Source: Dictyostelium discoideum
Lineage: Eukaryota
Reading direction: 5' to 3'
NCBI GenBank assembly: GCA_000004695.1
Contig: CM000152.2
Span: 1,760,001 to 1,824,000 of the forward strand
DNA length: 64,000 nucleotides
Shown here: positions 961 through 48,069 of the stretch, piece by piece
Layout: each line of letters opens with the position of its first letter
Numbering within the stretch: the stretch's first letter is position 1
Program-made: the position numbers and the translations under genes
The notes under the pieces: generated by a model
The model's database searches: none
Seen by the model: the letters and a program-made list of their open reading frames with translations, nothing else
What the model was told of the DNA's origin: nothing

Positions 961-1271
961 ATAATCACGATTTAAGTATTTAAATGTTTTGCAACAAAGA
1001 TTAACAAAATATAATAAAAACTAAAAAAAAAAAAAAAAAGCAAAAAAAAAAAAAACACCTATTTTAAATTTTTCTTTTTTATTATTATATATATATATGT
1101 ATACATTTATTTGTTTTTTTAAAGTGGGGAAAAAAAACAATGTATTTGTTTTTACAACTAATTAAATTGTATAAACATACATTATTTGGAATTTTTGATT
1201 TTGTTTTTGCGAAAGTAAATCCTATTTTTTTTTTTTTTTTTTTTTTTTTTGTTTCCTTTTGTTTTTTTCTT

Positions 1272-1904
1272 TTAAGTTCTCTTTAATTCATATTCTATTG
1301 CAGATAAATCATTTGAATTGTTTACAACAAAATCAGAAGGAGTTGGTGATAATTTTATATTACCCCAAATGTTTACATATAAACGCATAAACCCATTAAA
1401 TACTTTAATAATTCCATTTCTTAATATAATTGTATTACCTGGCTGTACAACATCATTTTGTTCTGTTGATTTTTTTACAATTAAAAATATATATTAAATA
1501 ATAATAAAAAATAAAGAAAATTGTTAATAATAATAATAATTAATAGTTTTTAACAAAATAAAAAAAATAATTTACCATTTTTAACAGTTAATATAATTGT
1601 ACCAGTTTCATCACCAACAACAGCTTCTGATATCATTTCTTTCTTATCTTTATTCTTTTCAATTACAACTTTTGTACTAACTACTTTTAAAATTAAATTA
1701 TGACCTGTTGACATTGGTTTTAAAGATGATACCTTTGAAACTAAAATAATAATAAAATATAAAAAAAGTTTGTTAGTATACCAATTTTTTTTTTTTTTAT
1801 TTTTTAAAAATAATAATAAAAATATCTCTCATTTTATTTTACTTTATTATAATATACATACAAGTTGGTTGTGTTAAAGGTGGTGCATTATTTTCAGTGG
1901 ACAT
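1272..1904 (-). CDS. OB-fold ssDNA-binding protein, hSSB/NABP (SOSS-B)-like paralog; 3 exons join(1904..1862,1740..1576,1462..1272), ~132 aa
   Basis: Exon 1 ATG TCC ACT GAA...ACT T | GTATGT donor; acceptor ...TTATTTTAG at 1741-1742; exon 2 ends AAAAATG | GTAAAT; acceptor ...ATCAACAG at 1463-1464. Spliced product ...LKPMSTGHNLILKVVSTKVVIEKNKDKKEMISEAVVGDETGTIILTVKNEQNDVVQPGNTIILRNGIIKVFNGFMRLYVNIWGNIKL... follows the hSSB1 pattern (KP..[10 protein letters not shown]...[14 protein letters not shown]...[12 protein letters not shown]...F.G.LTLY). It is not in the ORF track because every exon is below 60 aa. Confidence 0.5.
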
Positions 1905-2683
1905 TATGTTTAATTATATGTTTTAAATAAAGAAGAAAAAAAAAAAAAAAAAAAAAAAAAAATTTAATAAAAAAAAGATGCAAATAGGATCGTATAGATT
2001 TCGATATTTAGAAATAATCTGAAAATAAAAAAAAAAAATAAAAAAAAAAAAATATTGATTAAAAATAAAAAATTAATTTATGAAAATATTAATAAAAAAA
2101 AAAAAAAAAAAACCAGTGCAAATTCAATATAAAAAAAAAAAATTAATTTGTGAAAATAATAAAAAAAAAAATAAAAAAAAAAATTAAAAATAAAAAAAAA
2201 ATTAAAGTAAAAAAAAAAAATAAAAAAAAAATGCAAATATATATGTGTGTGAACATCATCTTATTTTAATATAACTAAATAAAAAAGGTTACCTTTATTT
2301 TATTTATTTTTTTAATTTACAAATTGGGTCAGATTTTTTTTTTTTACTTTAATTTTGGACAACTTAAATTCTTCCAAATTCGAATTATTGAATAAAAACA
2401 TTTGCCAAACTACTGATGAAAATTATTGCTCAAATATATTTTAATAATAATGAAAATAATTTCCAATAATAAATATATAACTCTAAAAAAAAAAAACTTT
2501 GATAATTAAAAAAAGGTTAAAAATTTAATTTTTGTATCCATTTTTATTATTATTATTTATAATGTAAAGTTTTTTTGAGATAAAAAGATAAATAATAATT
2601 AAAAATAAAAAATTAAAAGATTTAAAAATTTAAATAATATATTTTTTTTATTTTTATTTTATTTTATTTATTAGTTTATATTT

Positions 2684-5261
2684 TTATTCTTTATTAGCAT
2701 AAATTTCTCTAAATTGTTTAGCAACTTTAACCATATTAATTAAAGCTAATCTTGTAGTTTCTGGTTCTCTAGTTTTAAGACCACAATCTGGATTAATCCA
2801 TAAGAGATTAGTTGAGAGATATTTAAGCATTTGTTCAACACGATCTTTCATATCTTCAACAGATGGAATTCTTGGAGAGTGAATATCATAGAGACCTGGA
2901 CCAATTTCATTTGTGTAACCATATTTTTCAAAAGCTTTTAAGAGTTTGAGATCAGATTTTGAATTTTCAATAGTTAAAACATCAGTATCCATTCTTTGAA
3001 TTGATTCAAAGATATCATTGAAATCTGAATAACACATATGGGAGTGAATTTGAGTACTATCTTTAACACCAGTGCTTGATAATAAGAAAGAGTCAATTGC
3101 CCATTTAAGATATTGATTCCAATCGGATAAACGCAATGGAAGACCTTCACGAATTGCTGGTTCATCGATTTGAATACAAGCAATACCTTTATTTTCTAAA
3201 TCGGTAACTTCATCACGAATGGCTAAACCAATTTGGAAACAAGTTTCAGAACGTGGTTGGTCATCACGAACAAATGACCATTGAAGGATTGTAACTGGAC
3301 CAGTTAACATACCTTTCATTGGTTTGGTTGTGAGGGTTTGAGCAAATGTGGTATATTCAAGAGTCATTGGAACTGGTCTATTAACATCACCATAGATAAT
3401 TGGTGGTTTAACACAACGACTACCATAACTTTGTACCCAACCATTTTGAGTGAAAACGAAACCAGCTAAATATTCACCAAAATATTCAACCATATCGGTT
3501 CTTTCAAATTCACCATGTACTAAAACATCCAATTCACATTCTTCTTGAACTTTAATACATTTTCTAATTTCATCACGAATGAATTGATCATAAGCTTCTG
3601 GTGTGATTTTCTTTGATTTAAAGTTACTTCTTGCTAAACGGACTTCTTTAGTTTGTGGGAATGAACCAATAGTAGTGGTTGGGAATAATGCTGGAAGAGT
3701 AGTTAATCTTTTTCTTTGGGCTTCACGACGAACTGGGAATGGATTTTCACGTTTTAACATTGATGGAGTAATTTCAGTAACTCTCTTTTTAACGATATCA
3801 TTATGAATTAATTTTGATTCTCTTCTCTTTTGATTTGATTCTTTATTTAATTGATAATATTCTTTAATTTTTGAACAAGTATCTTCTGGGAAAGTAATAG
3901 TATTTTCAGTGGTAAAAGTACATTTATTAAGAGCGTAGGTAAGGAAAGAAATTTCTTTTAATTTCTCTAATGAGAAAGCTAACCAATCTAAGACTTGACT
4001 TTCAACTCTACCAATTTCACGAGTTAATGAATGTGGACAATGTAATAATGAACAAGATGGTGCCAATAAAATTCTATCACTACCAGTTTTGGCGATAATA
4101 TTCTTTAAGGTAACTAATGATTTAGTTAAATCATTCTTCCAAACATTTCTACCATCGATAATACCAATTGAAATTGTCCATGAGGTTGGAATTTTAGTTA
4201 AAACACTTTCAACTTCACTTGATGAACTTCTAATAGTATCAATATGAATACCATTTACTGGTAATGAAGTAATTAAATCAATATTTTCACGAATTTCACC
4301 GAAATAAGTTGCAATTAAAATATTAATATTTGGGGCAGCTTTATGAATTACATTAAAAGCAGTGGTATAAGCATTTTTAATTAATTCAGTTTCAAAGAGA
4401 TCAAAACATAAAACTGGTTCATCGATTTGAACAGATTTAACACCAATCTTTTCAAATTGTTTGAAAAGTTCTTCATAGACACCTAATAAAGCATTGAGGT
4501 GAACTAATGAATCGAATTTACTTGAATATGGTTTTGAACTATCACTTGATTTACCTAATAAAAGGAAAGAGATTGGGCCAAGAACAACTGGACGAGTTTC
4601 AATATCAATTGATTTTGCTTCTAAGAATTCGTGAATTGGTTTTGGTTCACTATAACCACCATAGTTTGTTAATTTGAATTGTTGAGAATCTTCAAATTCT
4701 GGTACAATGTAGTGATAATTTGTATCGAACCATTTCTTCATTTCCATACTACCAACATCGATTGATTTCTCAACTTTTGATGCAAATGCACCTTGAGTAT
4801 TGGTTTCTGAAACTTGGGTGGCTGCTTTTGAAGTTTGATAACCACGACCCATAGCGAAATAAGTACGTAAACCATTTGAACCATCTTCAATTTCAGATTC
4901 AACAACTGGAGTATAACGTTTTGGAATGGCACCAAATAAGTGAATATGATCTAAAACTTGATCATATAATGAAAAATCATTACTTGGAATAATTTCAATA
5001 CCAGCTTCCTTTTGTAATTTCCAATGATTAATTCTAATTTCTTTTAATTCCTTTTGGAATTGGGTTTCTTCAACTTTACCCTATTTTTAAAAAAAAAATT
5101 TTAAAAAATTTTAATTTTAATAAATTTATTTTATATTAAATATTTTATTTTAAAATAAAATTAAATTTTAGAAAACTTACTTGCCAATAGTTTTCAACTA
5201 ATTTCTTTAATTCACGGTTTTCACCCATTCTTGGGAAACCTAAATTTGATGATGAAACCAT
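2684..5261 (-). CDS. 5-methyltetrahydropteroyltriglutamate--homocysteine S-methyltransferase (cobalamin-independent methionine synthase, MetE); 2 exons join(5261..5181,5080..2684), ~825 aa
   Basis: The 722-aa ORF (2684..4852) carries MetE hallmarks throughout both barrel domains. Its in-frame region extends to 5080 and is preceded by the acceptor ...AAAAATAG. An upstream 81-nt exon encodes MVSSSNLGFPRMGENRELKKLVENYWQ, the canonical MetE N-terminus (MV.S..LGFPR.G..RELKK..E.YW), with a GTAAGT donor at 5180-5175. Phase 0 at both junctions. Confidence 0.92.
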
Positions 5262-5363
5262 TTTTTTATTTATTTAAAAATTTACTTATTTTGATAAGGT
5301 TAAATATAAAAAAAAAAAAGAGAATTGATTTGTTTTAAAAAATTATTTTCCAATTTTATAGTT

Positions 5364-5409
<46 letters not shown>

Positions 5410-6421
5410 AAAAAAAAAATAATAATTAAATTAAAAATAAATAAAAAAATAATTACGAAATAATATTACCAAACTGGTAGTATCTTATTGACTGTATATT
5501 CAAAAAAAAAAAAAAACAAAACAAAAAAAAAGGAAAATAAATCACCATAATGACTAATGGTATTGGAAATTATAATAATTTAAATTTAATAACCTAATTT
5601 TTTTTTTTTTTTTCCAAGCTTTTACAAAAACTAAACTTATCCCCATTGACGTGTAAATAATACAAAAATGATTTTTCATATTAGAAAAAGTATTTAAGAT
5701 GAAAATCATTTTGTATACACGTCAATGGGTTTTTTTTTTTTTTTGGTTTAAATTTGCATTTGGTTGGGGAAAAAAAAAAAAAAAAAAAAAAATATCTAAT
5801 GGCACTGAACAAGCACAATTAAATTTCACCCAATCTTATATGTTGTTGACTCAACAACTTCAAGGTTGATATTTGAAAATATTAGAAAATGAAAAAAAAA
5901 AAAAAAAAATAATATTGCAAAAAATTACCTTTACAATTGATTAAAAAAAATTTTTTTTTTTTTTTTTTATTTTATTATTTTTCTTTATTGTTATTACATT
6001 TCCTGAAAATGTAATTTAGAGACAATAATTGATTTTTCTATTAACAATATTTTTAAAATATTTTTATTCTTTTACTATTTTTTTTTTAATTATTATATTT
6101 TTTTTTCTTTATTTTATCATTCTATTATTTCTGTTACTTGAAAAAATAAATTGATATTATTTTTTATTAATTTTTTTTTTTTTTTAATCCAATATATTTA
6201 TTGAGAATGACCAAATTATATTTAAAAGGGAAATTTGAATGGAAAAAAAAAATAATTGAAAAAATTCTTATATTCTTTTAAATTTATTATTACAAAATAA
6301 AATAAAATAAAATAAAAATTATCTCAAATTAAATTTAAACAATATAAAATTTACACTTTAAAGAATGAATGTTTTTTTTTTTTATGAATATAGTTTTTAT
6401 AATTTATGTGTGAACAATTGT

Positions 6422-7386
6422 TTATTTCTTTCCACCAATAACAATACCATCATAAGTGGTTTTGAACCAGTTAACGGCATCTTCTTTACCGATTTTATGT
6501 TGGAAACCAACTTTAGCACCGGCTCTCTTTTTGTGAGCAACACGGAAACCTGGACGTGAAAGTACGACGAAGAAATCCATACCGTAAATACCGATTGATG
6601 GATCGTATTTAATACCTAAATCGATGTGTTCTTGGATACCAAAACCAAATGAACCTTGGGTTGAGAAGTTACGGGCACGGAGTTCGAATTCTCTAACTTT
6701 GAGACCTTTTTCTAAGATTTCAGCAGCTTTTTCACCACGGACAGTGACGTGAGCAGCGATTTGTTCATTACGACGAATGTTGAAAGATCTGACAGTGTAA
6801 CGAGCTATAATTTTTAATATTATGGTTAGTCTATGGTATTATTTTTAGTTATTATTATTTAAATAATTTACCTTTAGAGTAGACTGGGGTTTGACCAGTT
6901 AATTGTTCAAGTACTTTAGCAGCACGAACTAATCTATCACCAGATTCACCAACACAAATGTTGAGAACTAACTTTTCAATTCTGAGACCTCTCATGACAT
7001 TGTCTTTCTTTGATTTTTTGGTTTCAACTGGTGTAGTTGCTTCTGGTGCTTTGACGGCAACCTTAGTAGCGTTTTTGGTGGCAGCTTTGGCAGACTGTCA
7101 TTAAATAAAATGTTAATTTCTTTTTTACTTTCTGTGTAATTGTGAAATATAAGGAGGGTGATAGGTTTTTTTTAATGTTTAAACTTTTTTGACTATCTAT
7201 TTCATATTGTATATCCATTATCGTTATCATACTGTCATTATCAATCCTTGTTAATCTTTAATAATCTTTAATTAATCCACATCAACTATTTAATTTCAAC
7301 CTATAGTCCAAACATTAAACCAAACACCCACCTATATTTTCATACATATAAAATGATATATATAGACATCGCATAATACATACCAT
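6422..7386 (-). CDS. rpl11: 60S ribosomal protein L11 (uL5); 3 exons join(7386..7384,7094..6872,6804..6422), ~202 aa
   Basis: The two larger exons encode ...[46 protein letters not shown] | [82 protein letters not shown]..., about 75 percent identical to human RPL11. Intron 6805..6871 runs GTAAAT...TATAG. The upstream reading frame is closed by TGA just before the acceptor ...AATGACAG (7095-7100). The nearest start is an ATG followed immediately by GTATGT at 7386-7381, giving an ATG-only first exon and a 289-nt intron. The N-terminal extension [33 protein letters not shown] contains the conserved KKDNVMR.LRI motif, so it is coding. Confidence 0.8.
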
Positions 7387-7866
7387 TTTGTGGATGGAAG
7401 ATAAAACGTAAAAATTGAAAAATTGTGAGGATTTTTCTCAACACCAATAAATTTTTTTTTTTTAAAAATTGAAAAAAAAAAATTGAAAAACCTAAAGCCT
7501 AACGTTTTTTTTTTTTTTTTTTTGTTTGAAAAAGGATTAGGGCGAGAATTTTTTTTTTTTTTAATTTATTTATTTATTTTTTTTAGATGACAAATTTTTG
7601 AGATTAAAATAAAGTTAAAAAGGGGAATTATTAAAAAAATAAAAAAAAAAAAATAAATGAATAAAGAAAAAAAAAAAAAAATAATAATAAATAAAAATAA
7701 ATAAAAAAAAAAAAAAAAAAAAAGCACTATTTTTTATAAACAATTATTTTCAAGAAAAATCTTTTTTTTTTTTTAATTTAAATGCAAAGGAAATTATTCA
7801 TTTTTGGTTTGTGGATTATTTATTATTTGCAAATAAGATATCACCTTTGGAAAAAACCAAAAAATA

Positions 7867-13593: not shown

Positions 13594-13667
13594 TGTGCCT
13601 GAAGGGTTTCGATCCCATGACCTATTGATTCGAAGTCAATCGCTCTTCCGAACTGAGCTACAAGCAC
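13594..13667 (-). tRNA. tRNA-Arg, anticodon TCG (UCG), 74 nt including discriminator
   Basis: Minus strand reads GTGCTTG TA GCTC AGTTCGGAA GAGC G ATTGA CTTCGAA TCAAT AGGTC ATGGG ATCGAAA CCCTT CAGGCAC A. Acceptor stem has 7 bp including one G-U; D stem GCTC/GAGC; anticodon stem ATTGA/TCAAT with U33 and A37; anticodon UCG. T arm has one T-T mismatch and an A54-type loop (ATCGAAA), so a tRNAscan score is needed. It is supported as a real pol III gene by DGLT-A-like and TRE5-A insertions at the family-typical distances upstream (15 and 47 bp). Confidence 0.6.
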
Positions 13668-13682
13668 CTTGGCTTCATGGTG

Positions 13683-13945
13683 TGTAATAAAGCTTGTTAG
13701 CTTTATAAATATATAATTAATAATTATATAATTGAATAATACTTTGTTATCTTTATTTAATATTAGTTTATATTTATAATATTCAATATTGTTTATAAAA
13801 TTATTCTTTAGTATTTATATTATTCATAATGAGTTGACAGTATTATTATTATTATTATTATATTATTTAAATGTGTGTCAACTATAATTAGTAATGTAAT
13901 ATGCATATTTAATATCTATTAATTTTATAGAGTAACTTTATTACA
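13683..13945 (-). repeat. 3' LTR of the DGLT-A-like element (263 bp)
   Basis: Identical to 16071..16333 and terminates TGTAAT.../...ATTACA. The element ORF stop codon TAA is formed by LTR bases 13941-13943 (TG-TAA-T). Confidence 0.85.
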
Positions 13946-14542
13946 TATCCCCCCCTTTTAGTTGAAAAAAATTTTTCAATCTTTTAATATAAAACACATC
14001 ATGATTTTTAATATTATCCAATACTAATTTGAATTTTAAATCGCTAACTCTCTCATGTACTTTGAAAAGACCTTCCCAAGATTTATTGAGCTTTACTGGA
14101 CCAACAGTGGATTGTAAATAGACATAATCTCCTACTTGAATATTTGAACGAGAAACTTTTTTATTAATTTGTGATAATTGGTCTTTACCAAGATTATCCT
14201 TAATGAGACAAGGACGTTTGAGGTTATTATTAACAATTTGAGCGAAATTATGAGCAAAATCTAATCTTGATAAATTTGTACATGGATTTCTTATTAATGG
14301 TTGAATTGAGGTTATTTGTGATTTAATTATTGAATTCTCTGTTTGATTTAATGATATTGATTTTAATGGTAAATTTGATGTTATTGGTGAATCTATTGGT
14401 TCTTGGAATAAGAATTCTGGAATATCGTAATCTATTGGTAGTTGTTCTTCAATAGTTGGATACGATTTGATTGATAGTATATGATGAGAATTAAAATTTT
14501 CAATTAAATGATCAGTATCTGTTAATAATTCTGATTTTGATG

Positions 14543-14594
<52 letters not shown>

Positions 14595-15869
14595 TGAATA
14601 ATCAGATACTGTTTTAAATATAGTTTGTATACATGGTTGGGTTTCTTTAGATATTAATTTGGTACCAACATTGAATTCAAGATTCTTAATGATCATTTCT
14701 TTAAAATCAATGACTAAATTTAATCCAATTATTGTATCAATGCCAAATATACAATCAATTGATGTATCATTATCTTTAACAACATTAACTTTAACTCTAG
14801 CGAATGCTTTACCTAATTTAATTGTTGTGTTACTTATTCCAATGATTTCGATTTGATTATTTGATGCTGATTTAACAGAATATTGTTTATTTTCAATCTT
14901 TAATTTTAACTTTTTAGCAATACTTTCCCAAACAATAGTAAGTGATGAACCAGTATCAATCAAACCTCTAACATTTTTATTATTTATTAATAAAGCTGCA
15001 TTCATACTATCTATTCCAATTGAATTAATTGTACTATTATTGACCATTGTAATTGAATTAGTTCTATTATTGTAATTGTTATTATTATTTTTATCTTTTG
15101 ACCAACACTCTTGAATTACATGACCTTTCTTTTTGCAATATTTACAAAATTTTGTGATTGAATTTACTTGATTTTGTGGTGCTTTATAAGGGGATGATTG
15201 TGGTGACATTTGTGGTGATCGATTATAATATTGATTTTTAAAAATTGGTGTTGAAATTTCTTCAGATTCAATTGATTGTTGTTCGTTTTGAGATGTAACA
15301 TATTGAGGGGATGTTGCAGAATAACCCGAACCCGAACCTAGATATCTTTGATTACCAAATTCTTGCAACGTCTTTGCAACTAATTGACCAGTGTACATTG
15401 ATCTACCTTTGATACGAATTGAACCATCTTCACAAGACTTTGCAATATCTATTGCTCTTTTTAATGATTTTGGTGCACATTTTGTAATTTTAATACCCAA
15501 TTCAGTACCAACAGCTGAATAAAACAATTGTATTTTAAACTTTTCTGAAATATCAACTGCTGAACATTTTGATAGAAATTTACCAATTAATATATCTAAT
15601 GTATTGTATTTATATTCTCCCAACTTTGTTAATTCTGTTAAATCATCACTATCACCAATATCAAAAGCATCTTTAAGATCTTCAATTATCTCCATTGCTG
15701 TTAAGTCTGTATCCAATGTTGCGGCATATTCCAATGCATTGTTTCTTAGTTTTCTAATAATATCAGCTTTCGATATTTCCTCGCCATGAATTAATAAGAG
15801 TAAGTGTTTGAATTTACGAAATGATAAACCTTTTCCATCACCCGAAAAAATTACGTTTTCATTATTACT

Positions 15870-15872
<3 letters not shown>
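13941..15872 (-). CDS. retrotransposon polyprotein remnant (643 aa): Gag-CCHC + aspartic protease fused in frame to integrase C-terminal domain; RT/RNase H/integrase core deleted
   Basis: Continuous ORF from ATG (15872) to a TAA supplied by the 3' LTR. Motifs are listed under the element feature. It reads through the polypurine tract as K-G-G. Confidence 0.8.
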
Positions 15873-15956
<84 letters not shown>

Positions 15957-16070
15957 TATTAAATTAAATTTAATCTAATGTAAAATTTTAATTGATTGAA
16001 TAATTTGATAACTTTATATTTATAGTATATTTTTTTTTTTTTTTTTTTTTTGAAAGACGATGTCGCCAAA

Positions 16071-16333
16071 TGTAATAAAGCTTGTTAGCTTTATAAATAT
16101 ATAATTAATAATTATATAATTGAATAATACTTTGTTATCTTTATTTAATATTAGTTTATATTTATAATATTCAATATTGTTTATAAAATTATTCTTTAGT
16201 ATTTATATTATTCATAATGAGTTGACAGTATTATTATTATTATTATTATATTATTTAAATGTGTGTCAACTATAATTAGTAATGTAATATGCATATTTAA
16301 TATCTATTAATTTTATAGAGTAACTTTATTACA
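16071..16333 (-). repeat. 5' LTR of the DGLT-A-like element (263 bp)
   Basis: Identical copy of 13683..13945. Followed on the minus strand by TT + TGGCGACATCGTC (PBS-like) and a poly(A) stretch before the Gag ATG at 15872. Confidence 0.85.
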
Positions 16334-16369
16334 GGTGTAATGAACGTCGTATTCCAATTCCTATGAAAT

Positions 16370-17255
16370 TAAGTGTGGACACACCACTCACACCTGGAAT
16401 GTGAAGATTTTAAACCATCTACAAATTGCACTAGTAGCCAATTTAATAGCTATTATATTCGAAAAAATTTGGCACAAAAGAAACAAACTCATTCACGATG
16501 AAAAAGAAATAATAATTCACAGACAACAAGTAATACGTGAACTAATTAAAACACAAAGAGCTGCATGGGACAGGACACAAGCGGTTATAAACAAAACATT
16601 AAGAATCAAATCAAAGCAACGGCCAGAAGAACAAAATAAACTAGACTCACTAATCTCGCTAAAGCTATTACAATTTAGCAGACAATGGAACTCACCTCTT
16701 CACGCAATAGAACTTCCTAAACATCTCAAAAAATACAATAATTCACTCAGTACTTTCTATAAATAAATAAAAAAAAAAAAAAAAAAATAAAAAAATAAAA
16801 AAAAAAAAAAAAAAAACTTGGGAACCCAAGTTAATCAGAAAATTTCCAGATTTTTAACTTTTTAAAGAAAAATAAAAAAAATAGAAAGAAAATAAAATGA
16901 AAATCACAAACAACACCACAAATATTAAGCAACACAAATGCCTACAAAAAATAAGCGAAATTGTGGATAAAACTCAATTAAAAAAAAAACAATTCAAATA
17001 CGTCATAAACATCAATCACGAACCAGACGATAAAATAAAAAAAGATATAGAAAAAAGTTTGGACAAAAAAGATGTTTTAATCAAAAGTAATAATATAATT
17101 CAAAATTCGAAACAAAAAAAAAAAAAAAAAAAAAAAAAAAGGTAAACCAACCCCTCTTTTAGAGACCCTGTAAAAAAAAAAAAATAAAATAAAATGAGAT
17201 CTAGCATCTCAAGGAGAAGCAAATAATAATTGCGTTATCCAATTCAAAAAAAAAA
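16370..17255 (+). mobile_element. 5'-truncated TRE5-A (DRE) copy: ORF2 3' end (16370..16766), B-module with ORF1-start duplicate (16897..17145), C-module, oligo(A) 17246..17255; flanked by 15-bp TSD CAATTCCTATGAAAT (16355..16369 and 17256..17270)
   Basis: ORF 16401..16766 is about 99 percent identical to the C-terminus of the 772-aa ORF2 at 39975..42293. 16897..17145 matches 39583..39831 (MKITNNTTNIKQHKC...). The C-module segment aaatgagatctagcatctcaaggagaagcaaataataattgcgttatccaattc matches the 3' end of the full copy. Removing the DGLT-like element and one GGTG places the truncated 5' end 47 bp upstream of tRNA-Arg, the canonical TRE5-A position. Confidence 0.75.
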
Positions 17256-17670
17256 CAATTCCTATGAAATACTTTTGATAATTTGTATATACCTTATATA
17301 CTTGTGTTACCCTTGAACACAGAGAAATAATTAATAATAAATAATAAATAATAAATAATATTATATCTCTTATATAATATTATATGTAATAAAGTATAAG
17401 TTTTGTTTATGCACAATTTGGAATAAAACAACAATGAATTAATTTTTATTTTATTTACTATTTATACTAAAATTAATTTTACTAAAGAAACCGTTGGTTA
17501 AATTTCTGAGAATAAAGTAAGAATCTTGTATTTGACGTCTTTTCAGTAACAGATCTATTTCTATATTTGTATTTTACCAAGGATAAAAACTTTATATGTT
17601 AATTTATGTCGCTTAATTATTCGCGATTATTACACAAGTAAAGGACCTCGTATTTGGACTTCTATGAAAT

Positions 17671-18156
17671 TATGAGGCTTGGCACATATTCTTCAAATGT
17701 AAATCTCACCTCAAAGACACTCAAACCTGCATTGATTACATTCAAGATAAAAGTGGGGGTTCCCAAATCACGTGGGGAGTGGAAATATTTGGGAACAAAC
17801 TGGATATTTCACTAACAGCCAACGCCATAGCTATAATCTGTGAAAGCATTTGGAGAAGAAGAAACAAAAGAATACACGAAGAAATCACTCTCAAAAAACT
17901 AAGAGAAGAAAAACCCAAACATCTATTAAAGAAAACGCAAGAAGCTGCCTTGGAAAGAACCAAAAACAACATATATAAATTAATAAGACAATCAAAAAAA
18001 GCAACAACGATTGAAGCAGCTAAAAAATTCAAATCCATCATCTCCTCTCAATTAGAAAGATTCAGAAAAAACTAGAACTCTCCTCTACACATAGTAACAC
18101 TTCCACCCAACCTAAACAAATATATAACATCACTCAACACACTCTATACCCTCAAC

Positions 18157-19088: not shown

Positions 19089-20968
19089 ATGTTTAATCAA
19101 ACTAAAATATTTTTATTTTTATTTTTGTTACTATCTTTATTTGTTTTTATTGGTATGGATAAATATTTTTTTTTTTTTTTTTCATTATATTTATTAAAAT
19201 GGTTTTAATATTAACAATGGGTTAATTTTTTATTTTAGATTGTTACCCATGCGATTATAATGTAGGTTGTGATGATGGAGATGAATGTACTGGTGATTCA
19301 TGTTCAATTGATAATTTATGTATAAATATTATTATTTCATGTGATGATAGTAATTTATGTACCAGTGATTCTTGTTCAAGTATAACTGGTTGTTCTAATG
19401 TACCAATTTCATGTGACGATTGTAATGCTTGTACCGTTGATTCTTGTTTGCCATTGATTGGTTGTTGTCATGCTCCAATGGTATGTGATGATTGTAATGC
19501 TTGTACAGTTGATTCATGTTTAAATTCAACTGGTTGCTGTCATACTCCAATAGTATGTGATGATTGTAATGCTTGTACAATTGATTCTTGTTTAAATTCA
19601 ACTGGTTGTTGTCATACTCCAATGGTATGTGATGATGGTAATGCTTGTACAAATGATGGTTGTTCAAGTGAAACTGGTTGCAATCATTTGCCAATTTCAT
19701 GTGATGATTGTAATGCTTGTACATTGGATTCTTGCTCACCAATTACTGGTTGTTGTCATAGTCAAATTTCATGTGATGATTGTAATGCTTGTACATTAGA
19801 TTCTTGTTCACCAATTATTGGTTGTTGTCATACTCAAATGGTCTGTGATGATGGTAATGCTTGTACAAATGATGGTTGCTCTGAAGAAACTGGTTGTTGC
19901 CATACTCCAATTTCATGTGATGATGGCAATTCTTGTACAAATGATGGTTGCTCTGAAGAGACTGGTTGTTGTCATACTCCAATTTCATGTGATGATGGTA
20001 ATGCTTGTACATTAGATTCTTGCTCCTCAACTACTGGTTGTTGTCATACTGCAATGGTATGTGATGATGGTGATGCCTGTACATTAGATTCTTGTTCACA
20101 AACTTCTGGCTGTTGTAGTTCACCAATTTCATGTGATGATGGTAATGCATGCACTAATGATGGTTGTTCAAGTGAAACTGGTTGTATTCATTTACCAATT
20201 TCATGTGATGATGGCAATGCTTGTACAAATGATGGTTGCTCTGAAGAAACTGGTTGTTGTCACACTCCAATTTCATGTGATGATGGTAATGCTTGTACTA
20301 ATGATGGTTGCTCTGAAGAGACTGGTTGTTGTCACACTCAAATTTCATGTGATGATGGTAATGCTTGTACAAATGATGGTTGTTCAAAGGAAGATGGTTG
20401 TATTCATTTACCAATCTCATGTGACGATTGTGATGCCTGTACAGTTGATTCTTGTTCAAATGAAGATGGTTGTATTCATTTACCAATTTCATGTGACGAT
20501 TGTGATGCTTGTACAATTGATTCTTGTTTAAATTCTACTGGTGGTTGTTGTCATACTCCAATTTCATGTGATGATGGTAATGCTTGTACAAATGATGGTT
20601 GTTCAAGTGAAACTGGTTGTAATCATTTACCAATTTCATGTGATGATGGTAATGCTTGTACATTAGATTCTTGCTCACCAACTACTGGTTGTTGTCATAC
20701 TCCAATTTCATGCGATGATGGTGATGCTTGTACATTAGATTCTTGTTCACCAACTTCTGGCTGTTGTAGTTCCCCAATTTCATGTGATGATGGTAATTTA
20801 TGTACAATTGATTCCTGCTCACCTTCAACTGGTTGTTGTCATACTCCAATTTCTTGTAATGATCTCAATATGTGCACCATTGATTTCTGTCTCCCAAATT
20901 TTGGTTGTGTTCATAGATTAAGACCATCATGCCATAACTATAACGAAATTGGTATTAATATAAATTAA
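19089..20968 (+). CDS. secreted cysteine-rich protein built from ~20 tandem 26-28-aa Dicty_CTDC-type repeats (GCCHTPISCDDGNACTNDGCSEET); exons join(19089..19152,19239..20968), ~598 aa
   Basis: Exon 1 MFNQTKIFLFLFLLLSLFVFIG is a signal peptide with a GTATGG donor at 19153. Acceptor TTATTTTAG at 19237-19238; phase 1 is consistent with ORF 19448..20968. The repeat consensus is C-x-D-x-N-x-C-T-x-D-x-C-S-x-x-T-G-C-C-H-x-P-I-S. Antisense His/Tyr-rich ORFs in the track are by-products of the repeat. Confidence 0.7.
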
Positions 20969-39974: not shown

Positions 39975-42293
39975 TTATTTATAGAAAGTACTGAGTGAAT
40001 TATTGTATTTTTTGAGATGTTTAGGAAGTTCTATTGCGTGAAGAGGTGAGTTCCATTGTCTGCTAAATTGTAATAGCTTTAGCGAGATTAGTGAGTCTAA
40101 TTTATTTTGTTCTTCTGGCCGTTGCTTTGATTTGATTCTTAATGTTTTGTTTATAACCGCTTGTGTCCTGTCCCATGCAGCTCTTTGTGTTTTAATTAGT
40201 TCACGTATGACTTGTTGTCTGTGAATTATTATTTCTTTTTCATCGTGAATGAGTTTATTTCTTTTGTGCCAGATTTTATCGAATATAATAGCTATTAAAT
40301 TGGCTACTAGTGCAATTTGTAGATGGTTTAAAATCTTCACATTCCAGGTGTGAGTGGTGTGTCCACACTTAGTTAGGGTGTAGTTGAAGATTTCTTGTGT
40401 GTTTTTGATGTGGGCTTTGCAGTTGAAGAATATATGTTCTGAGGTCTCATCTTCCCCACACTGTTGGCATGGCATGTTGTATATTTTTGGTAGTGCTTTC
40501 AGTGTGTATCTCCATAATAGATCTCTACCTTTCATGTTTATTATTTTTTTGATTTCTTTAAATGGAAGGTGTTTGCTATTAATTTTGGTCATTATTTCTT
40601 TTTGGCCAGGAGTTGGTATGAATTTGTTGTGTTCAGGAGATTGAGTTGTCATCATATCCTCGTATATTTTTTTTAATTTTGGGAGGTGTTCGTAGTGTGT
40701 TTGTTTATTTTGTGGAGTTTTTAATTGGGTCCATGCTTGCTTGCATTGCCAGTGTAGTTGTAGTTGATTTTGTTTTGTTGTTGTTTTGTTGTTGTTGTTG
40801 TTTTTGAGTTCCTCTTCCCACAGTTTTATATATGAACTAGGAGTGTTACTTACTCTTTGGTGGAGGTATCTTTCGAATAACCATGCTTTCTGTGCTAGTT
40901 CTCTTGTCTTCAGGTTCCATAAGTTTAGGCCACCATTGATATAGTTGTTTTGTCTTCTTTGTAGTGAAAGAGAGTTTTTAGATTTTGTGTTGAAAACGAA
41001 TTTTACGATGTTATTTTCAATACTATTGTGTTGTGGTGTGGTGTTGATGTAAGTGTGGAACGTTAACTGAGATAGTGCATATGTTTTTGCCATTATGAGT
41101 CTGCCCATATAGGTTGATGAAGTTGAGTTCCATGTTACTAGTTTAGCTCTGATGTTGTCTGAGATTGTATTGATTTTGGATTTGATACCCTTATTGTTGA
41201 AGTCAAAGCCGAGGTACCTTTCGTTTGATTTTATGACGGTGTATAGCGTTCTGGTGTTCCATTTGAAAGTGATACACGAGCATTTGGTTTGGTTTATTTT
41301 TGCGCTGGTTGCTTGGCAAAACTTCTTGATCCATTCATTCATGAGGAAATGGTCCATAAAGTTGTATGCTATTGTTGCTGTATCATCGGCGAACTGTAGT
41401 ATTTTAATGGTTTCTTTGGTTACACCATTGATGCAGCGGTCATTTATTATAGTAGTTGCCATGCATTCAACCACTAATGCGAAGATAGTGGGAGAGATAG
41501 GATCCCCTTGTTTGGTTCCTCTTTTTGATGTAAAGCTTTTAGATAATGAGTTATTGATGTACCCTGATGTTTCTGATTCATTGAGTAAGTTCATTATTGT
41601 GAGGACCATTTTGAGTGGTAGTTTTAGATGTGCAAGAGTACGTAGAATGGCGTTATGTGAGATTGAATCGAATGCTTTTTCAAAATCATAAAATGTTATG
41701 ATTGGTTCCATATCCTCTTTTGTGTTAATCTCTCGTTTTATTATTTCTATTGTTGAGTTTAAGGTGATGATGTTATCGTGCAGTAGTCTTCTTGGTACGA
41801 ATCCAGTTTGGAATGGTGAGATTATTTTGTTTAAGAACTTCAGGATCCTATTGTTGATTATTTTCGAATAGATTTTGTAATCGACATTTAGAAGTGTTAT
41901 TGGTCTATAGTTATCCAGGTTGTTTGGGTCTCCTTTGTTTTTATATATAGTAATCAATATCCCTTGTTTGAAGTCCTTTGGGATTGTTGTGTTCCAGAAG
42001 TGATTGTATAGTTTTGATATTATTGGTAGAATTTCATTAATGTGGTTTTTGTAAAATGTTGGAAGGAGTCCATCTTTACCAGGTGCTTTTCCTTCTTGTA
42101 TTTTTTCAATGCCTAGTCTGATTTCGTATTCTTCTATTGGTTGATTAATTTCGTCCAATATCTTTTGATCAATCCTTTTATTGAATGTTTTTAGGAGTTC
42201 GTGGTGAGTGTCTTCGTTGCATTCTCTCTTCTGGTACAGGTTCTCGTAATATCTTCTTGCTACTTCGAGGATATCCTCGTTTTTTGTTACCAA
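39975..42293 (-). CDS. TRE5-A ORF2 reverse-transcriptase and C-terminal segment (772 aa as listed; in frame with 42351..43196)
   Basis: RT motifs are present (...ISPFQTGFVPRRLLHDNI..., QFADDTATIA). The C-terminal 120 aa are duplicated almost exactly in the truncated copy at 16401..16766. Confidence 0.85.
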   Translation of the reverse strand: MVTKNEDILEVARRYYENLYQKRECNEDTHHELLKTFNKRIDQKILDEINQPIEEYEIRLGIEKIQEGKAPGKDGLLPTFYKNHINEILPIISKLYNHFWNTTIPKDFKQGILITIYKNKGDPNNLDNYRPITLLNVDYKIYSKIINNRILKFLNKIISPFQTGFVPRRLLHDNIITLNSTIEIIKREINTKEDMEPIITFYDFEKAFDSISHNAILRTLAHLKLPLKMVLTIMNLLNESETSGYINNSLSKSFTSKRGTKQGDPISPTIFALVVECMATTIINDRCINGVTKETIKILQFADDTATIAYNFMDHFLMNEWIKKFCQATSAKINQTKCSCITFKWNTRTLYTVIKSNERYLGFDFNNKGIKSKINTISDNIRAKLVTWNSTSSTYMGRLIMAKTYALSQLTFHTYINTTPQHNSIENNIVKFVFNTKSKNSLSLQRRQNNYINGGLNLWNLKTRELAQKAWLFERYLHQRVSNTPSSYIKLWEEELKNNNNNKTTTKQNQLQLHWQCKQAWTQLKTPQNKQTHYEHLPKLKKIYEDMMTTQSPEHNKFIPTPGQKEIMTKINSKHLPFKEIKKIINMKGRDLLWRYTLKALPKIYNMPCQQCGEDETSEHIFFNCKAHIKNTQEIFNYTLTKCGHTTHTWNVKILNHLQIALVANLIAIIFDKIWHKRNKLIHDEKEIIIHRQQVIRELIKTQRAAWDRTQAVINKTLRIKSKQRPEEQNKLDSLISLKLLQFSRQWNSPLHAIELPKHLKKYNNSLSTFYK

Positions 42294-42350
42294 ACAATTG
42301 TTGCTTGGATCTAGAATTTGAGGGATTTCATTTGTCTTTCTTTGGACTTT

Positions 42351-43196
42351 TCACCTTCTGGTTAAGTATTTTGATGGTGTTTCTTTGTTGTTGATGTGGG
42401 TGTTGGTTTGGTTTGCTTGTTTTATTCTTACTTGTTCCTTTAGAATATTGTTGATCTCTTCTTTAAGGAAGATTGCTCTTGAATCTTTGGCTGTTTCGAG
42501 TTTTTCTGCGAGTTCTTTTAGTTTGTTTTTGGTTTTATTGCTTTCTCTAATTTCTATATTAATTGACAGTTTCTTTATTTCATCTTTTAGTTTCAACCAT
42601 TGTTCGCAAATGTTTAATTTGTACCATTTGCTGGTGTTCTCTTCGAATTTTTTATTGTAGTATTTAATTGTTTTATTAATTTTGAGGCTGGTTGAATTCA
42701 TTTTGAGAGTTTCTAGGTTTTGTCTCCATAGTCTTTCTCCTTTCTTTTGTTGCTCGTATTCTGGTATTTTTAATTCAATGATTACCATGTTGTGATCAGA
42801 TTTTAATTTGATTTCCTTAGTAGTAACTATTGGGTTTAGATGGAGTATCTTCTTTGAGACAAAGACCCTATCGATGGTTGATTTGTTTCTTGGAAATGTG
42901 ATTCCATTCTTAATTTCTGTAAATTCGAATTCGTCGAAGATTGTTTTAATATATTTGTTAAGGTTATTATCCACTGAACAGTCTACATTGAAGTCTCCAG
43001 TTATAATATCGCTGTGTAGTATTTCTTCTGTGAGATTTTCCTTATACCATTCATGTCTTTCGTTTGACTTTGCTGGGGCATAAATGGTTGTGCATTTGAT
43101 CTGTGTTTTTGCAATCATCCATTCGGAAGATATAATTCTTTCGTTTATTGTTTTTGTTGTTGTTTTTATTTGGGTGTTGATGATGATTTGTGACAC
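42351..43196 (-). CDS. TRE5-A ORF2 N-terminal segment (apurinic/apyrimidinic-endonuclease-like domain), terminated by an in-frame TGA at 42353..42351
   Basis: 281-aa ORF ...DHNMVIIELK... ending ...ETPSKYLTRR*. The same reading frame continues after the TGA for 19 codons (KVQRKTNEIPQILDPSNNC) into the 772-aa RT ORF, so ORF2 is interrupted by a single nonsense codon, not a frameshift. Confidence 0.75.
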   Translation of the reverse strand: MSQIIINTQIKTTTKTINERIISSEWMIAKTQIKCTTIYAPAKSNERHEWYKENLTEEILHSDIITGDFNVDCSVDNNLNKYIKTIFDEFEFTEIKNGITFPRNKSTIDRVFVSKKILHLNPIVTTKEIKLKSDHNMVIIELKIPEYEQQKKGERLWRQNLETLKMNSTSLKINKTIKYYNKKFEENTSKWYKLNICEQWLKLKDEIKKLSINIEIRESNKTKNKLKELAEKLETAKDSRAIFLKEEINNILKEQVRIKQANQTNTHINNKETPSKYLTRR

Positions 43197-43408
43197 CCCT
43201 TGTCCTGTTTTATCAATTGGTGCGTGGTGTGTTATTTTGTTTTTATATTGTTGATTTATTGAGTAAATTTTATTTGTTTTTATATTTGTTTCAGTTAGAA
43301 GTGCTGCGTCCAGCTTGTTGTTGTCTAATACGGTGTTTATTATGCTGGCAGATTGGATGGTGTTGGATCCTTGGACGTTCCAAACACCTATTCTTATTGT
43401 GTTTTTCT

Positions 43409-44743
43409 TTATAGTTTTATTTGGGGTAGATTTTTATCTACCTTTTGAAGTTTCTGGTTTATTTTGTCTTCTAACTGATCTTTACTTTGTTCGTTGTGTT
43501 GTTGGTCTTGTGTGTTTGTGGGGTTTTTTGATTTACTGATTTGTTTTAGAATTTCCTTGTTGAAGTTGTCTATATCTTCATCCATTTTTGTTTTTATGCT
43601 TTTTTGTCCATATTCACCCAATTTTGGTTTGACTGGTGTTTTGTTGGTCCTGTTTGTTTTGTCTTGTTGTTTGTTTTTTGGTGTGTTTAACAATTTACTT
43701 GGTGAATCGATAATTTTCGATGGTGTACCATAGGTTGGGCTGAAACTCATGATATGTTTTATTGGAGAGGAGAAGAACCATTGATTTGAAGGGATTGAAA
43801 GTGGGAATTCTATTTTTCTTATTGCATCAGTGTTTGGGCTGGTGAAGTCGAAGATATCATTTACCTCTCTAAGTTTTTCTTCCGTTGTTAGTCTCTTTGT
43901 TTCGCCGTGTTGTTTTATTGGTGTATTGTATGGAGATGGTGGTTCAATAGGTTTTTCTGATTTTGTTTTAATTTCTTGATTGTTTATCGATTGGGTATTG
44001 ATCTCATTCTCTATTCTTGTTAGTTCATCTACGTTTTCTAGTGATGCATCTATTACCTTTTGAGCTGTATCATCTAGGGCCATAAATGTTTTATCATTAG
44101 ATGAGGAGGTGATTGGTGGGATAATGATTGTTCTTTTTCCTTGTTTTGGTATTTGTTCTGATGTAGATTGTGGTTGTTGTTCATCTGATTGTTTTTTATT
44201 TTTGTTTTCTTCTTGATTTTCTGGTAATGAGGTTTGATCTCTCCATCCTTTGTTGGAGTGACCAATTAATGTTAGATTGTCTAGTTCAATGATAGTGTCA
44301 TATTCTTCTACGACTCTTTTCACTGTTTTGATAATTAGAGTTTCGCCTTTAATTTCAGATTTAATTAGTTTACATCCTTCATTTTCTATTACCCATTCTA
44401 TTTCTGTGAGTGATTTATACCAATCGAAATCCGTATACATATTTTTTGGTCTTAGAGTGGTTATAAATTGTCCTTTTAATTCTGCATCGAACATATTTAC
44501 AAAATAGATTACTGTACTAATACTGTCTGTGAGAATTTTGAATGTATTATTACTTTTGATTAAAACATCTTTTTTGTCCAAACTTTTTTCTAAATCTTTT
44601 TTTATTTTATCGTCTGGTTCGTGATTGATGTTTATGACGTATTTGAATTGTTTTTTTTTTAATTGAGTTTTATCCACAATTTCGCTTATTTTTTGTAGGC
44701 ATTTGTGTTGCTTAATATTTGTGGTGTTGTTTGTGATTTTCAT
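43409..44743 (-). CDS. TRE5-A ORF1 protein (444 aa)
   Basis: Long ORF MKITNNTTNIKQHKCLQKISEIVDKTQLKKKQFKYVININHEPDDKIKKDLEKSL.... It is 98-99 percent identical to the second copy at 46047..47381, and its N-terminus is duplicated in the 3' B-modules. Confidence 0.85.
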   Translation of the reverse strand: MKITNNTTNIKQHKCLQKISEIVDKTQLKKKQFKYVININHEPDDKIKKDLEKSLDKKDVLIKSNNTFKILTDSISTVIYFVNMFDAELKGQFITTLRPKNMYTDFDWYKSLTEIEWVIENEGCKLIKSEIKGETLIIKTVKRVVEEYDTIIELDNLTLIGHSNKGWRDQTSLPENQEENKNKKQSDEQQPQSTSEQIPKQGKRTIIIPPITSSSNDKTFMALDDTAQKVIDASLENVDELTRIENEINTQSINNQEIKTKSEKPIEPPSPYNTPIKQHGETKRLTTEEKLREVNDIFDFTSPNTDAIRKIEFPLSIPSNQWFFSSPIKHIMSFSPTYGTPSKIIDSPSKLLNTPKNKQQDKTNRTNKTPVKPKLGEYGQKSIKTKMDEDIDNFNKEILKQISKSKNPTNTQDQQHNEQSKDQLEDKINQKLQKVDKNLPQIKL

Positions 44744-46046: not shown

Positions 46047-47381
46047 TTATAGTTTTATTTGGGGTAGATTTTTATCTACCTTTTGAAGTTTCTGGTTTAT
46101 TTTGTCTTCTAACTGATCTTTACTTTGTTCGTTGTGTTGTTGGTCTTGTGTGTTTGTGGGGTTTTTTGATTTATTGATTTGTTTTAGAATTTCCTTGTTG
46201 AAGTTGTCTATATCTTCATCCATTTTTGTTTTTATGCTTTTTTGTCCATATTCACCCAATTTTGGTTTGACTGGTGTTTTGTTGGTCTTGTTTGTTTTGT
46301 CTTGTTGTTTCTTTTTTGGTGTGTTTAACAATTTACTTGGTGAATCGATAATTTTCGATGGTGTACCATAAGTTGGGCTGAAACTCATGATATGTTTTAT
46401 TGGAGAGGAGAAGAACCATTGATTTGAAGGGATTGAAAGTGGGAATTCTATTTTTCTTATTGCATCAGTGTTTGGGCTGGTGAAGTCGAAGATATCATTT
46501 GCCTCTCTAAGTTTTTCTTCCGTTGTTAGTCCCTTTGTTTCGCCGTGTTGTTTTATTGGTGTATTGTATGGAGATGGTGGTTCAATAGGTTTTTCTGATT
46601 TTGTTTTAATTTCTTGATTGTTTATCGATTGTGTATTGATCTCATTCTCTATTCTTGTTAGTTCATCTACGTTTTCTAGTGATGCTTCTATTACCTTTTG
46701 AGCTGTATCATCTAGGGCCATAAATGTTTTATCATTAGATGAGGATGTGATTGGTGGGATAATGATTGTTCTTTTTCCTTGTTTTGGTATTTGTTCTGAT
46801 GTAGATTGTGGTTGTTGTTCATCTGATTGTTTTTTATTTTTGTTTTCTTCTTGATTTTCTGGTAATGAGGTTTGATCTCTCCATCCTTTGTTGGAGTGTC
46901 CAATTAATGTTAGATTGTCTAGTTCAATGATAGTGTCAAATTCTTCTACGACTCTTTTCACTGTTTTGATAATTAGAGTTTCGCCTTTAATTTCTGATTT
47001 AATTAGTTTACATCCTTCATTTTCTATTACCCATTCTATTTCTGTGAGTGATTTATACCAATCAAAATCTGTATACATATTTTTTGGTCTTATAGTGGTT
47101 ATAAATTGTCCTTTTAATTCTGCATCAAACATATTTACAAAATAGATTACTGTACTAATACTGTCTGTGAGAATTTTGAATGTATTATTACTTTTGATTA
47201 AAACATCTTTTTTGTCCAAACTTTTTTCTAAATCTTTTTTTATTTTATCGTCTGGTTCGTGATTGATGTTTATGACGTATTTGAATTGTTTTTTTTTTAA
47301 TTGAGTTTTATCCACAATTTCGCTTATTTTTTGTAGGCATTTGTGTTGCTTAATATTTGTGGTGTTGTTTGTGATTTTCAT
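46047..47381 (-). CDS. TRE5-A ORF1 protein (444 aa), second copy
   Basis: Near-identical to 43409..44743, with a few substitutions (for example RPKNMYT/IRPKNMYT, EEYD/EEFD). Confidence 0.85.
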   Translation of the reverse strand: MKITNNTTNIKQHKCLQKISEIVDKTQLKKKQFKYVININHEPDDKIKKDLEKSLDKKDVLIKSNNTFKILTDSISTVIYFVNMFDAELKGQFITTIRPKNMYTDFDWYKSLTEIEWVIENEGCKLIKSEIKGETLIIKTVKRVVEEFDTIIELDNLTLIGHSNKGWRDQTSLPENQEENKNKKQSDEQQPQSTSEQIPKQGKRTIIIPPITSSSNDKTFMALDDTAQKVIEASLENVDELTRIENEINTQSINNQEIKTKSEKPIEPPSPYNTPIKQHGETKGLTTEEKLREANDIFDFTSPNTDAIRKIEFPLSIPSNQWFFSSPIKHIMSFSPTYGTPSKIIDSPSKLLNTPKKKQQDKTNKTNKTPVKPKLGEYGQKSIKTKMDEDIDNFNKEILKQINKSKNPTNTQDQQHNEQSKDQLEDKINQKLQKVDKNLPQIKL

Positions 47382-47964: not shown

Positions 47965-47995
47965 TAATGACATTCATAACAAAAAAATCATGTTT

Positions 47996-48069
47996 GGTTT
48001 GATGGTGTAGTTGGTTATCACGGTTGCTTTACACGCAACAGGTCTCGAGTTCGATCCTCGGTCGGATCA
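47996..48069 (+). tRNA. tRNA-Val, anticodon TAC (UAC), 74 nt including discriminator; T5 terminator at 48075..48079
   Basis: GGTTTGA TG GTGT AGTTGGTTA TCAC G GTTGC TTTACAC GCAAC AGGTC TCGAG TTCGATC CTCGG TCGGATC A. The anticodon arm GCTTTACACGC is the tRNA-Val(TAC) signature; T loop is TTCGATC; acceptor stem has 3 G-U pairs; followed by atatattttt. The TRE5-A pair ends 46 bp upstream, the canonical integration distance. Confidence 0.85.

Follow-up and report, generated by a model that had tools for sequence, protein, structure and literature searches.

A 2.6-kb derivative of DGLT-A, a Ty3/gypsy family of long terminal repeat (LTR) retrotransposons, lies on the minus strand of Dictyostelium discoideum contig CM000152.2 (assembly GCA_000004695.1), at positions 13683–16333 of the 64,000-nt stretch analysed here (the window; positions 1,760,001–1,824,000 of the contig). 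The same locus is found at 1.855–1.869 Mb of chromosome CM142509.1 in D. discoideum assembly GCA_054883475.1, with 99.5% identity. The question that it raises is whether a complete element was inserted here and lost its enzymes in place, or whether the deleted form is what has been replicating. Taking into account the other copies described below, we consider it highly probable that the window element belongs, as one copy, to a lineage of DGLT-A which is internally deleted and non-autonomous, and that this deleted form has itself been the replicating unit. The earlier note on this DNA had likewise preferred a non-autonomous, trans-mobilised element to simple decay, and our results support that preference; the trans-mobilisation step is one that we infer.

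The two LTRs of the window copy, of 263 nt each, are 100% identical; they start with TGTAATAA, end with TTATTACA and enclose an internal region of 2,125 bp (13946–16070) with a primer-binding site (PBS) and a polypurine tract (PPT; coordinates of all features are given in Table 1). The identical LTRs, the PPT, a PBS-like sequence and 2.1 kb of internal DNA had been read correctly by the earlier note, and the PBS is the published DGLT-A one. The tRNA gene that it had seen beside the element is tRNA-Arg(TCG); the element lies upstream of it, with 15 bp between the tRNA 5′ end and the LTR, and a GGTG target-site duplication (TSD), hitherto unmentioned, flanks the insertion. A second LTR end suggested by a TTATTACA at 17627 was rejected as a chance match, BLAST of the LTR against the window having returned no further LTR.

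The sole long open reading frame (ORF), of 643 aa, had been described as a Gag-protease-integrase tail fusion devoid of reverse transcriptase (RT), RNase H (RNH) and integrase (IN) core, and both Pfam and alignment bear this out. Pfam places an aspartyl protease (PR) at aa 295–379 (E=1e-10), with its active site D306-T-G at 14949–14957 and the DTG invariant across all copies. Sub-threshold matches were obtained for the CCHC knuckle and for a Tf2-type integrase SH3 domain (SH3_Tf2-1), and the scan of the 643-aa ORF did not find RVT_1, RT_RNaseH, Integrase_H2C2, rve or a chromodomain (PF00385). Thus, of the SH3/chromo-like tail proposed earlier, an SH3-like GPY/F integrase C-terminal domain stands and the chromo part falls. 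Residues 1–402 constitute Gag-PR, with 79% aa identity to the full-length P0007, and are followed by a short stretch (aa 403–426), a poly-Asn tract, an RT stub of about 24 aa, an RNase H/spacer remnant of about 66 aa and the IN C-terminal remnant, which is 47% identical to P0007 aa 1309–1422. Neither the stub nor the spacer remnant had been noticed before; a spacer piece, SRYPDRNQQPIDCDIPE, aligns with SYPTIEEQLPIDYDIPE of the full-length reference. An AlphaFold2 model of the ORF, built on a six-sequence alignment, had a mean predicted local distance difference test score (pLDDT) of 31.7 and was not used.

For comparison with complete elements, an exhaustive HMMER search recovered a 1,423-aa relative whose cluster mate, P0155 of 'Dictyostelium cf. 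discoideum', is an intact 1,455-aa Gag-PR-RT-RNH-IN polyprotein with all expected Pfam domains, including RVT_1, RT_RNaseH, Integrase_H2C2 and rve, which are missing from the window ORF. The nucleotide reference, L007, is a full-length DGLT-A of 5,055 bp (positions 2605–7659 of its locus, D. cf. discoideum GCA_054859235.1), a length in agreement with the published consensus of 5,054 bp. In L007, a frameshift at the PR-RT junction gives two overlapping ORFs (2989–4263 and 4188–7367), the 5′ LTR is without its first 4 nt and adjoins an inverted partial LTR, and no tRNA gene was found within 3 kb; the sister copy that encodes P0155 is intact. Both agree with the derivative in PBS core, PPT and LTR termini: the PBS core TGGCGACATCG is kept in all copies, and the PPT in every derivative copy and the full-length element.

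Against L007 and P0155, the derivative shows gaps at element nt 1824–3023 and 3362–4408, plus two small spacer gaps. Alignment of the ORF to full-length DGLT-A therefore maps two missing blocks and not the single deletion that had been assumed, a segment of the RNH-IN spacer being retained between them. Junction 2 was located by codon-level comparison with L007. DGLT-A carries two modules that bind Tfc4, a TFIIIC subunit (RNH aa 733–879 and IN-NED aa 994–1067; PMC6101501), and on the published domain map both fall within the deleted blocks.

The DGLT-A family of D. discoideum is defined by its PBS sequence, located 2 nt after the LTR, by a CX2CX4HX4C Gag knuckle and by insertion 13–33 bp (mean 15) upstream of tRNA genes (PMC5006619), and its published LTR length is 265 bp. 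The window element has TG...CA LTRs of about that size, the exact PBS, TGGCGACATCGTCTTTC, and a PPT, AAAAGGGGGGG, next to the 3′ LTR. Its copies lie upstream of tRNA genes, in either orientation and at a distance of about 15 bp; the same Gag knuckle is in frame with PR, and the polyprotein is homologous to that of DGLT-A, with the short GPY/F integrase C-terminal domain and no chromodomain. By descent, it belongs to DGLT-A. It differs from the complete family member by about 2.4 kb (RT core, RNase H, IN N-terminal extension, zinc finger and DDE core), so that reverse transcription, integration and the two Tfc4-binding modules are beyond its coding capacity, and by the diverged IN tail of its sublineage, where GPF has become GLF, and a stop codon now in the LTR. 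The single ORF with RT, RNase H and HHCC + DDE integrase that characterises an autonomous DGLT-A is not found in it. Skipper-1 and Skipper-2 (DGLT-P) are likewise Ty3/gypsy LTR elements of D. discoideum with Gag and PR, but they have a chromodomain, a polypyrimidine stretch in place of the PBS and two ORFs, and they lie in centromeric clusters or downstream of tRNA genes. Membership in Skipper/DGLT-P is ruled out by the lack of a chromodomain, the canonical PBS and the tRNA-upstream position; the assignment to DGLT-A made in the earlier note therefore holds.

Copies at other loci were sought, as the earlier note had advised. A protein search returned the AX4 gene DDB_G0279931 (97% identical, 636 aa) and relatives, to which cluster listings added DDB_G0271456, DDB_G0277283, DDB_G0276009 and DDB_G0287455. 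The AX4-lineage assembly GCA_054883475.1 has six loci colinear with the window element from one LTR to the other, with 91–98% identity: the window copy (WIN, also recovered as L001), L002, L003, L008, L009 and L010, the last two with one LTR end each clipped by a later insertion. Strain ACTFIR holds at least four copies (L004, L005, P0164 and P0163) of a subfamily of similar size and about 76% identical in DNA, the L004 and L005 ORFs being identical to each other, and decayed members are present in D. cf. discoideum (P0012, and P0156 at locus L011). The window type (WIN, L002), L003 and the L004 type have junction 2 at one and the same codon (…NP.T^N(S)L.LDF, the caret marking the junction), and in a joint alignment all three show identical gap blocks; the probable ancestral form of junction 1 (…SPSDKEF^DVL…; DKEF^D(A)L) survives in P0012 and P0156. 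Copies with a common breakpoint, which the earlier note had considered decisive, do therefore exist, both in the AX4 lineage and in the divergent ACTFIR subfamily.

Seven insertions have each their own 4-bp TSD (GGTG, TTTC, CTAA, ACGG, TCCG, CATA and ATAA) and lie, in either orientation, 12–28 bp from different tRNA genes, namely Arg(TCG), Ile(AAT), Leu(TAA), Val(AAC), Leu(CAA), Leu(AAG) and one further tRNA. The breakpoints are not random, and the combination of shared junctions with separate TSDs and tRNA targets excludes both in-place decay and segmental duplication. What was copied and integrated, many times over, was the deleted form. The LTRs agree with this: LTR pairs are identical within WIN, L002, L003 and L008, L004 and L005 have one indel each, and in six of the seven TSD-flanked insertions the pair is without substitutions, while between copies LTRs differ by 2–25%. 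The divergence hence arose in replicating lineages before insertion.

An (ATT)n microsatellite in the LTR, at about 13839–13862, differs in length among copies and is the same within each LTR pair. Copy-to-copy variation of this tract and of the (AAT)n in the ORF agrees with the high slippage mutation rate reported for the D. discoideum genome (PMC7466956).

Other deleted forms were also found. At L011, positions 1083–3402 hold an L004-type derivative of 2,320 bp which is also without protease and, with an LTR pair 87% identical, is old. In P0165 of ACTFIR (1,176 aa), the integrase is kept and the loss is confined to part of RT + RNase H and the spacer. DGLT-A is thus a family that generates a series of internally deleted forms.

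The LTR-supplied stop codon to which the earlier note had drawn attention is real, but it is a trivial secondary change of one sublineage and not a design feature. In L003, L004, L005 and the full-length elements, the native ORF end is ...RLKKIFN followed by a TAA that overlaps the first PPT bases (CTAAAAGGGGGGG); P0155 and P0007 end in KKIFN, as do the genomic ORFs of L003, L004 and L005, which have no interruption. An A/T run close to this end reads A5T7 in the window copy and L002 and A7T4 in the other aligned copies, a gain of one nucleotide by which the native stop was lost, the ORF being read 8 codons on, across the PPT, as far as the TAA at LTR bases 3–5. Some NCBI gene models of the family (P0002, P0003, P0007 and P0161; GCA_054883475.1, GCA_054859385.1 and GCA_054859235.1) include predicted introns, whose effect is a false C-terminus (…GGDM) or the skipping of a frameshift; the analysis was based on the uninterrupted genomic ORFs in place of these models. 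The L003 counterpart of the IN tail matches Integrase_p58_C above threshold.

Some copies bear traces of exchange with autonomous elements. In its LTRs, most of Gag, PR and the spacer, L003 matches the window copy at 99–100% identity, but at nt 2001–2300, in the integrase tail, identity is 72% to the window copy and 90–98% to the full-length element; a second such patch lies at its Gag C-terminus, and DDB_G0271456 (P0157) has a Gag-PR linker of autonomous type. The simplest reading is that derivative and autonomous RNAs were packaged together and that templates were switched between them repeatedly; such switching is predicted by trans-mobilisation. An independent origin of the two derivative subfamilies seems less parsimonious, given the shared junctions.

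Of the six AX4-lineage copies, five have an uninterrupted ORF, as have both fetched ACTFIR copies (L004 and L005), and none of the copies has a stop codon in the spacer or tail. When the window type is compared with the L004 type (synonymous divergence, dS, ~0.6), the ratio of nonsynonymous to synonymous divergence (dN/dS) is ~0.2 for Gag-PR, ~0.5 for the integrase tail and ~1.2 for the spacer. On these values, Gag-PR is under purifying selection and the spacer evolves neutrally, yet in frame. The pattern is consistent with an element that depends on Gag and protease of its own and for which early termination is costly; it does not establish a function for the IN tail.

These observations can be assembled as follows. 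An ancestral DGLT-A would have lost two internal blocks, both in frame, one with RT/RNase H and the other with the IN N-terminal extension, zinc finger and catalytic core, leaving the structure LTR-PBS-[Gag-PR-RT stub-spacer-IN C-terminal domain]-PPT-LTR. Its 2.6-kb RNA retains all cis signals of the complete element (LTR ends, PBS, PPT and presumably the packaging signal) and encodes Gag and protease, whereas RT, RNase H and integrase would be supplied in trans by autonomous DGLT-A. We infer that the RNA was packaged with helper proteins, and reverse transcribed and integrated by them. As copies stand at the canonical distance from tRNA genes although the Tfc4-binding modules are deleted, targeting must come from the integrase complex of the helper; it is this targeting, together with the recombinant copies, that points to mobilisation in trans.

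That a full-length DGLT-A was instead inserted at tRNA-Arg and lost its pol in place, its look-alikes elsewhere being coincidental, is scarcely credible. Published surveys call all nine non-solo AX4 copies merely 'not full-length', and the short similarities at the junctions (KEF/KENF, CA-A) could favour deletion. However, the six AX4-lineage copies are colinear throughout and share, besides the junctions, the secondary small deletions, TSD and tRNA target are separate for every copy checked, and LTR pairs match within copies and differ between them; decay spread by segmental duplication is excluded by the distinct flanks and TSDs. The microhomology at both junctions could also indicate dead-on-arrival products, RNAs of autonomous elements repeating the same two template-switch deletions to give 2.6-kb copies that are never recopied, and the fact that window-type Gag is nearer to autonomous than to L004-type Gag would be expected from separate masters. 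Against this, both junctions would need to recur exactly, and window-type copies have traits of their own (a spacer 99–100% identical among them with extra small deletions, the IN tail at 47% and the +1 frameshift sublineage) which are absent from all autonomous sequences and were therefore inherited from a deleted template. L004-type copies, in turn, are near-identical mutually and 25% diverged from every autonomous sequence found. We regard such recurrence as highly unlikely.

The intact ORFs, the purifying selection on Gag-PR and the frame kept open through a neutral spacer might alternatively reflect interference, the Gag-PR-IN tail polyprotein being kept for dominant-negative control of autonomous DGLT-A in the manner of Ty1 p22 or Fv1. 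No full-length copies have been reported in AX4, and such control could explain their extinction. Nevertheless, upkeep of the ORF is equally expected of a parasite dependent on its own Gag in cis, and multicopy, LTR- and TSD-flanked, tRNA-targeted units are transposing units and not a fixed host gene, which leaves interference as an unlikely explanation of the element. A domesticated single-copy gene was also considered and is ruled out, the copies being multiple and flanked by LTRs and TSDs.

Several points count against a replicating deleted lineage or temper the evidence for it. All the evidence for the spread of the derivative is comparative. Identical LTRs, which the earlier note took as a sign of recent transposition, are an observed fact but weak dating evidence: at the D. 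discoideum substitution rate of 2.47e-11 per site per generation (PMC7466956), no difference is expected to arise in a 263-bp LTR pair over tens of millions of generations. In 5,000 simulations of random substitution at the level of divergence seen, linker + tail together never stayed free of stop codons (either part alone did so in 0.3–1%), a result that is indicative only, as the spacer alignment is uncertain and the divergence may be overstated; an indel-phase test shows compensating non-triplet gaps, probably artefacts, in this low-complexity alignment. The low dN/dS of Gag-PR could be partly inherited from autonomous partners by recombination. Window-type Gag is 84–87% identical to autonomous Gag and 76–77% to L004-type Gag, and either recombination refreshed Gag-PR or the derivative arose more than once. 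According to published surveys, AX4 has no intact full-length DGLT-A, all nine non-solo copies being listed as 'not full-length' (PMC5006619), and a protein search with the RT-IN core, whose listing was swamped by generic Ty3/gypsy matches, gave only one AX4 IN fragment, DDB_G0286503. Since surveys identify no AX4 helper, the copies may be relics of past activity, and current activity in the laboratory strain is doubtful. Finally, the accessible literature describes no GAG/protease-only non-autonomous LTR elements in Amoebozoa, and no paper was returned for the identifiers of the five AX4 genes; Glöckner 2001 and Winckler 2005, which lie outside it, may describe the form.

In plants, non-autonomous LTR elements with GAG only or GAG/PROT only are known (TR-GAG; PMC8704663, PMC13570524). 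The window element has in common with this class an LTR-PBS-PPT-LTR frame, a Gag-PR ORF without polymerase or integrase catalytic domains, same-structure copies at TSD-flanked sites and an autonomous partner with shared cis signals. Arabidopsis AT5TE33540 of ATCOPIA63 and the sugar-beet GAG/PROT families are similarly multicopy, with two LTRs, a PBS and a PPT; their one ORF codes for Gag, with protease in some cases, and for no catalytic domain of RT or IN, and the enzymes are presumed to come from a related autonomous partner with LTR and internal sequence in common; recombination with partners has been reported (PMC8704663, PMC13570524). The Dictyostelium element differs in being Amoebozoan, Ty3/gypsy-derived and targeted to tRNA genes, in keeping an in-frame IN C-terminal domain and RNH-IN spacer with the frame open to the native stop, and in being apparently the majority form of its family in AX4. 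Closer in taxonomic terms are Dp_DGLT-A.4 and A.5 of D. purpureum (3.4-kb LTR elements, 30–32 copies; Spaller 2016 Table 1), which are also short, evidently non-autonomous and tRNA-upstream, and outnumber autonomous DGLT-A copies. They are assigned to the family from the tRNA-upstream position only and are likened here by description only; they are reported to have 'no ORFs', in contrast to the intact, constrained Gag-PR ORF of the window element.

Table 1. Coordinates of the DGLT-A derivative and its integration target in the window (a caret marks a deletion junction).
Feature	Position	Strand	Remarks
3′ LTR (element sense)	13683..13945	-	263 bp; bases 3–5 (TAA) terminate the ORF in the window copy
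5′ LTR	16071..16333	-	263 bp
PBS TGGCGACATCGTCTTTC	16052..16068	-	starts 2 nt past the 5′ LTR; identical to the published DGLT-A PBS
PPT AAAAGGGGGGG	13949..13959	-	3 nt ahead of the 3′ LTR
TSD GGTG, left copy	13679..13682	.	direct reading of the sequence
TSD GGTG, right copy	16334..16337	.	direct reading of the sequence
tRNA-Arg(TCG) gene, integration target	13594..13667	-	ARAGORN; Rfam tRNA 62.9 bits
Sole long ORF, 643 aa: Gag, PR, RT stub, RNH/IN spacer, IN C-terminal domain	13941..15872	-	
Gag region	15063..15872	-	CX2CX4HX4C zinc knuckle at 15105–15146
Retropepsin domain	14736..14990	-	Pfam Asp_protease_2, 42.5 bits (cut-off 24.3)
Poly-Asn tract (AAT)16	14547..14594	-	aa 427–442; 8 to 16 Asn depending on copy
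N-terminal stub of RT region	14475..14546	-	aa 443–466, ~24 aa, without catalytic motifs; aligned to P0004 and P0155
RNase H C-terminal end and low-complexity RNH-IN spacer	14277..14474	-	aa 467–532, ~66 aa; BLASTP to P0007 aa 835–907
IN C-terminal domain remnant, SH3-like GPY/F module	13965..14276	-	aa 533–636; GPF degenerated to GLF
A/T run with +1-nt change	13965..13976	-	sense strand A5T7 vs ancestral A7T4 (alignment of five copies)
Deletion junction 1	14474..14475	-	~1,200 bp gone: RT core and RNase H; placed to ~15 nt
Deletion junction 2 (...LIRNPCT^NLSRLDF...)	14276..14277	-	~1,050 bp gone: IN N-terminal extension, HHCC zinc finger, DDE core

The neighbouring sequence contains other mobile DNA. 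Window positions 16338–16816 (+) hold the 3′ end of ORF2 from a non-LTR retrotransposon with a poly(A) tail, 99% identical to window 39981–40374. With the DGLT-A derivative removed, this fragment starts about 45 nt upstream of tRNA-Arg, a typical TRE5 position, from which it follows that the derivative was inserted between the tRNA gene and an older, 5′-truncated TRE5-type element. A related fragment, about 70% similar, lies 1.3 kb beyond it, at about 17627–18100. A nearly full-length non-LTR retrotransposon occupies 39975–44743 (-) and 46047–47381 (-), with a 772-aa ORF (Pfam RVT_1), a 281-aa ORF and a 444-aa ORF1; a second copy of the 444-aa ORF1 stands head-to-head with it, upstream of tRNA-Val(TAC) at 47995–48070 (+). 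This arrangement looks like stacked TRE5-type insertions at one tRNA gene. At 19448–20968 (+), a 506-aa ORF of tandem Cys-rich modules (…CDDGNACTNDGCS.ETGCCHTPIS…), self-aligning in many registers, is presumably a host repeat protein.

According to the standard view, DGLT-A is probably dead in D. discoideum, since no full-length copy is found there. The present results refine this view, as at least six of the roughly nine non-solo AX4 copies are one doubly deleted form, most of the six with an intact Gag-protease ORF and the four with two complete LTRs having identical LTR pairs. On comparative grounds, the derivative appears to be a non-autonomous lineage that has propagated itself and has recombined with autonomous elements, of which intact copies survive in close relatives. 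A bolder proposal is that it represents a long-lived DGLT-A parasite, older than the split between D. discoideum and 'D. cf. discoideum', which with its frame under selection and by recombining may have replaced its helpers in AX4, the polyprotein, in the strongest form of the proposal, interfering with them. We hold this to be unlikely; if true, interference would explain why full-length elements are extinct in the reference strain while intact copies persist in sister lineages. The 2.6-kb element as substrate and the P0155-type 1,455-aa ORF as helper would permit an assay of DGLT-A retrotransposition, for which no active element has been available so far. The derivative also offers a natural case of separation of function, the tRNA-targeted integration of an RNA that encodes neither Tfc4-binding module. 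The principle of GAG/protease-only elements is already established; what changes is the reading of the DGLT-A population of the model strain.

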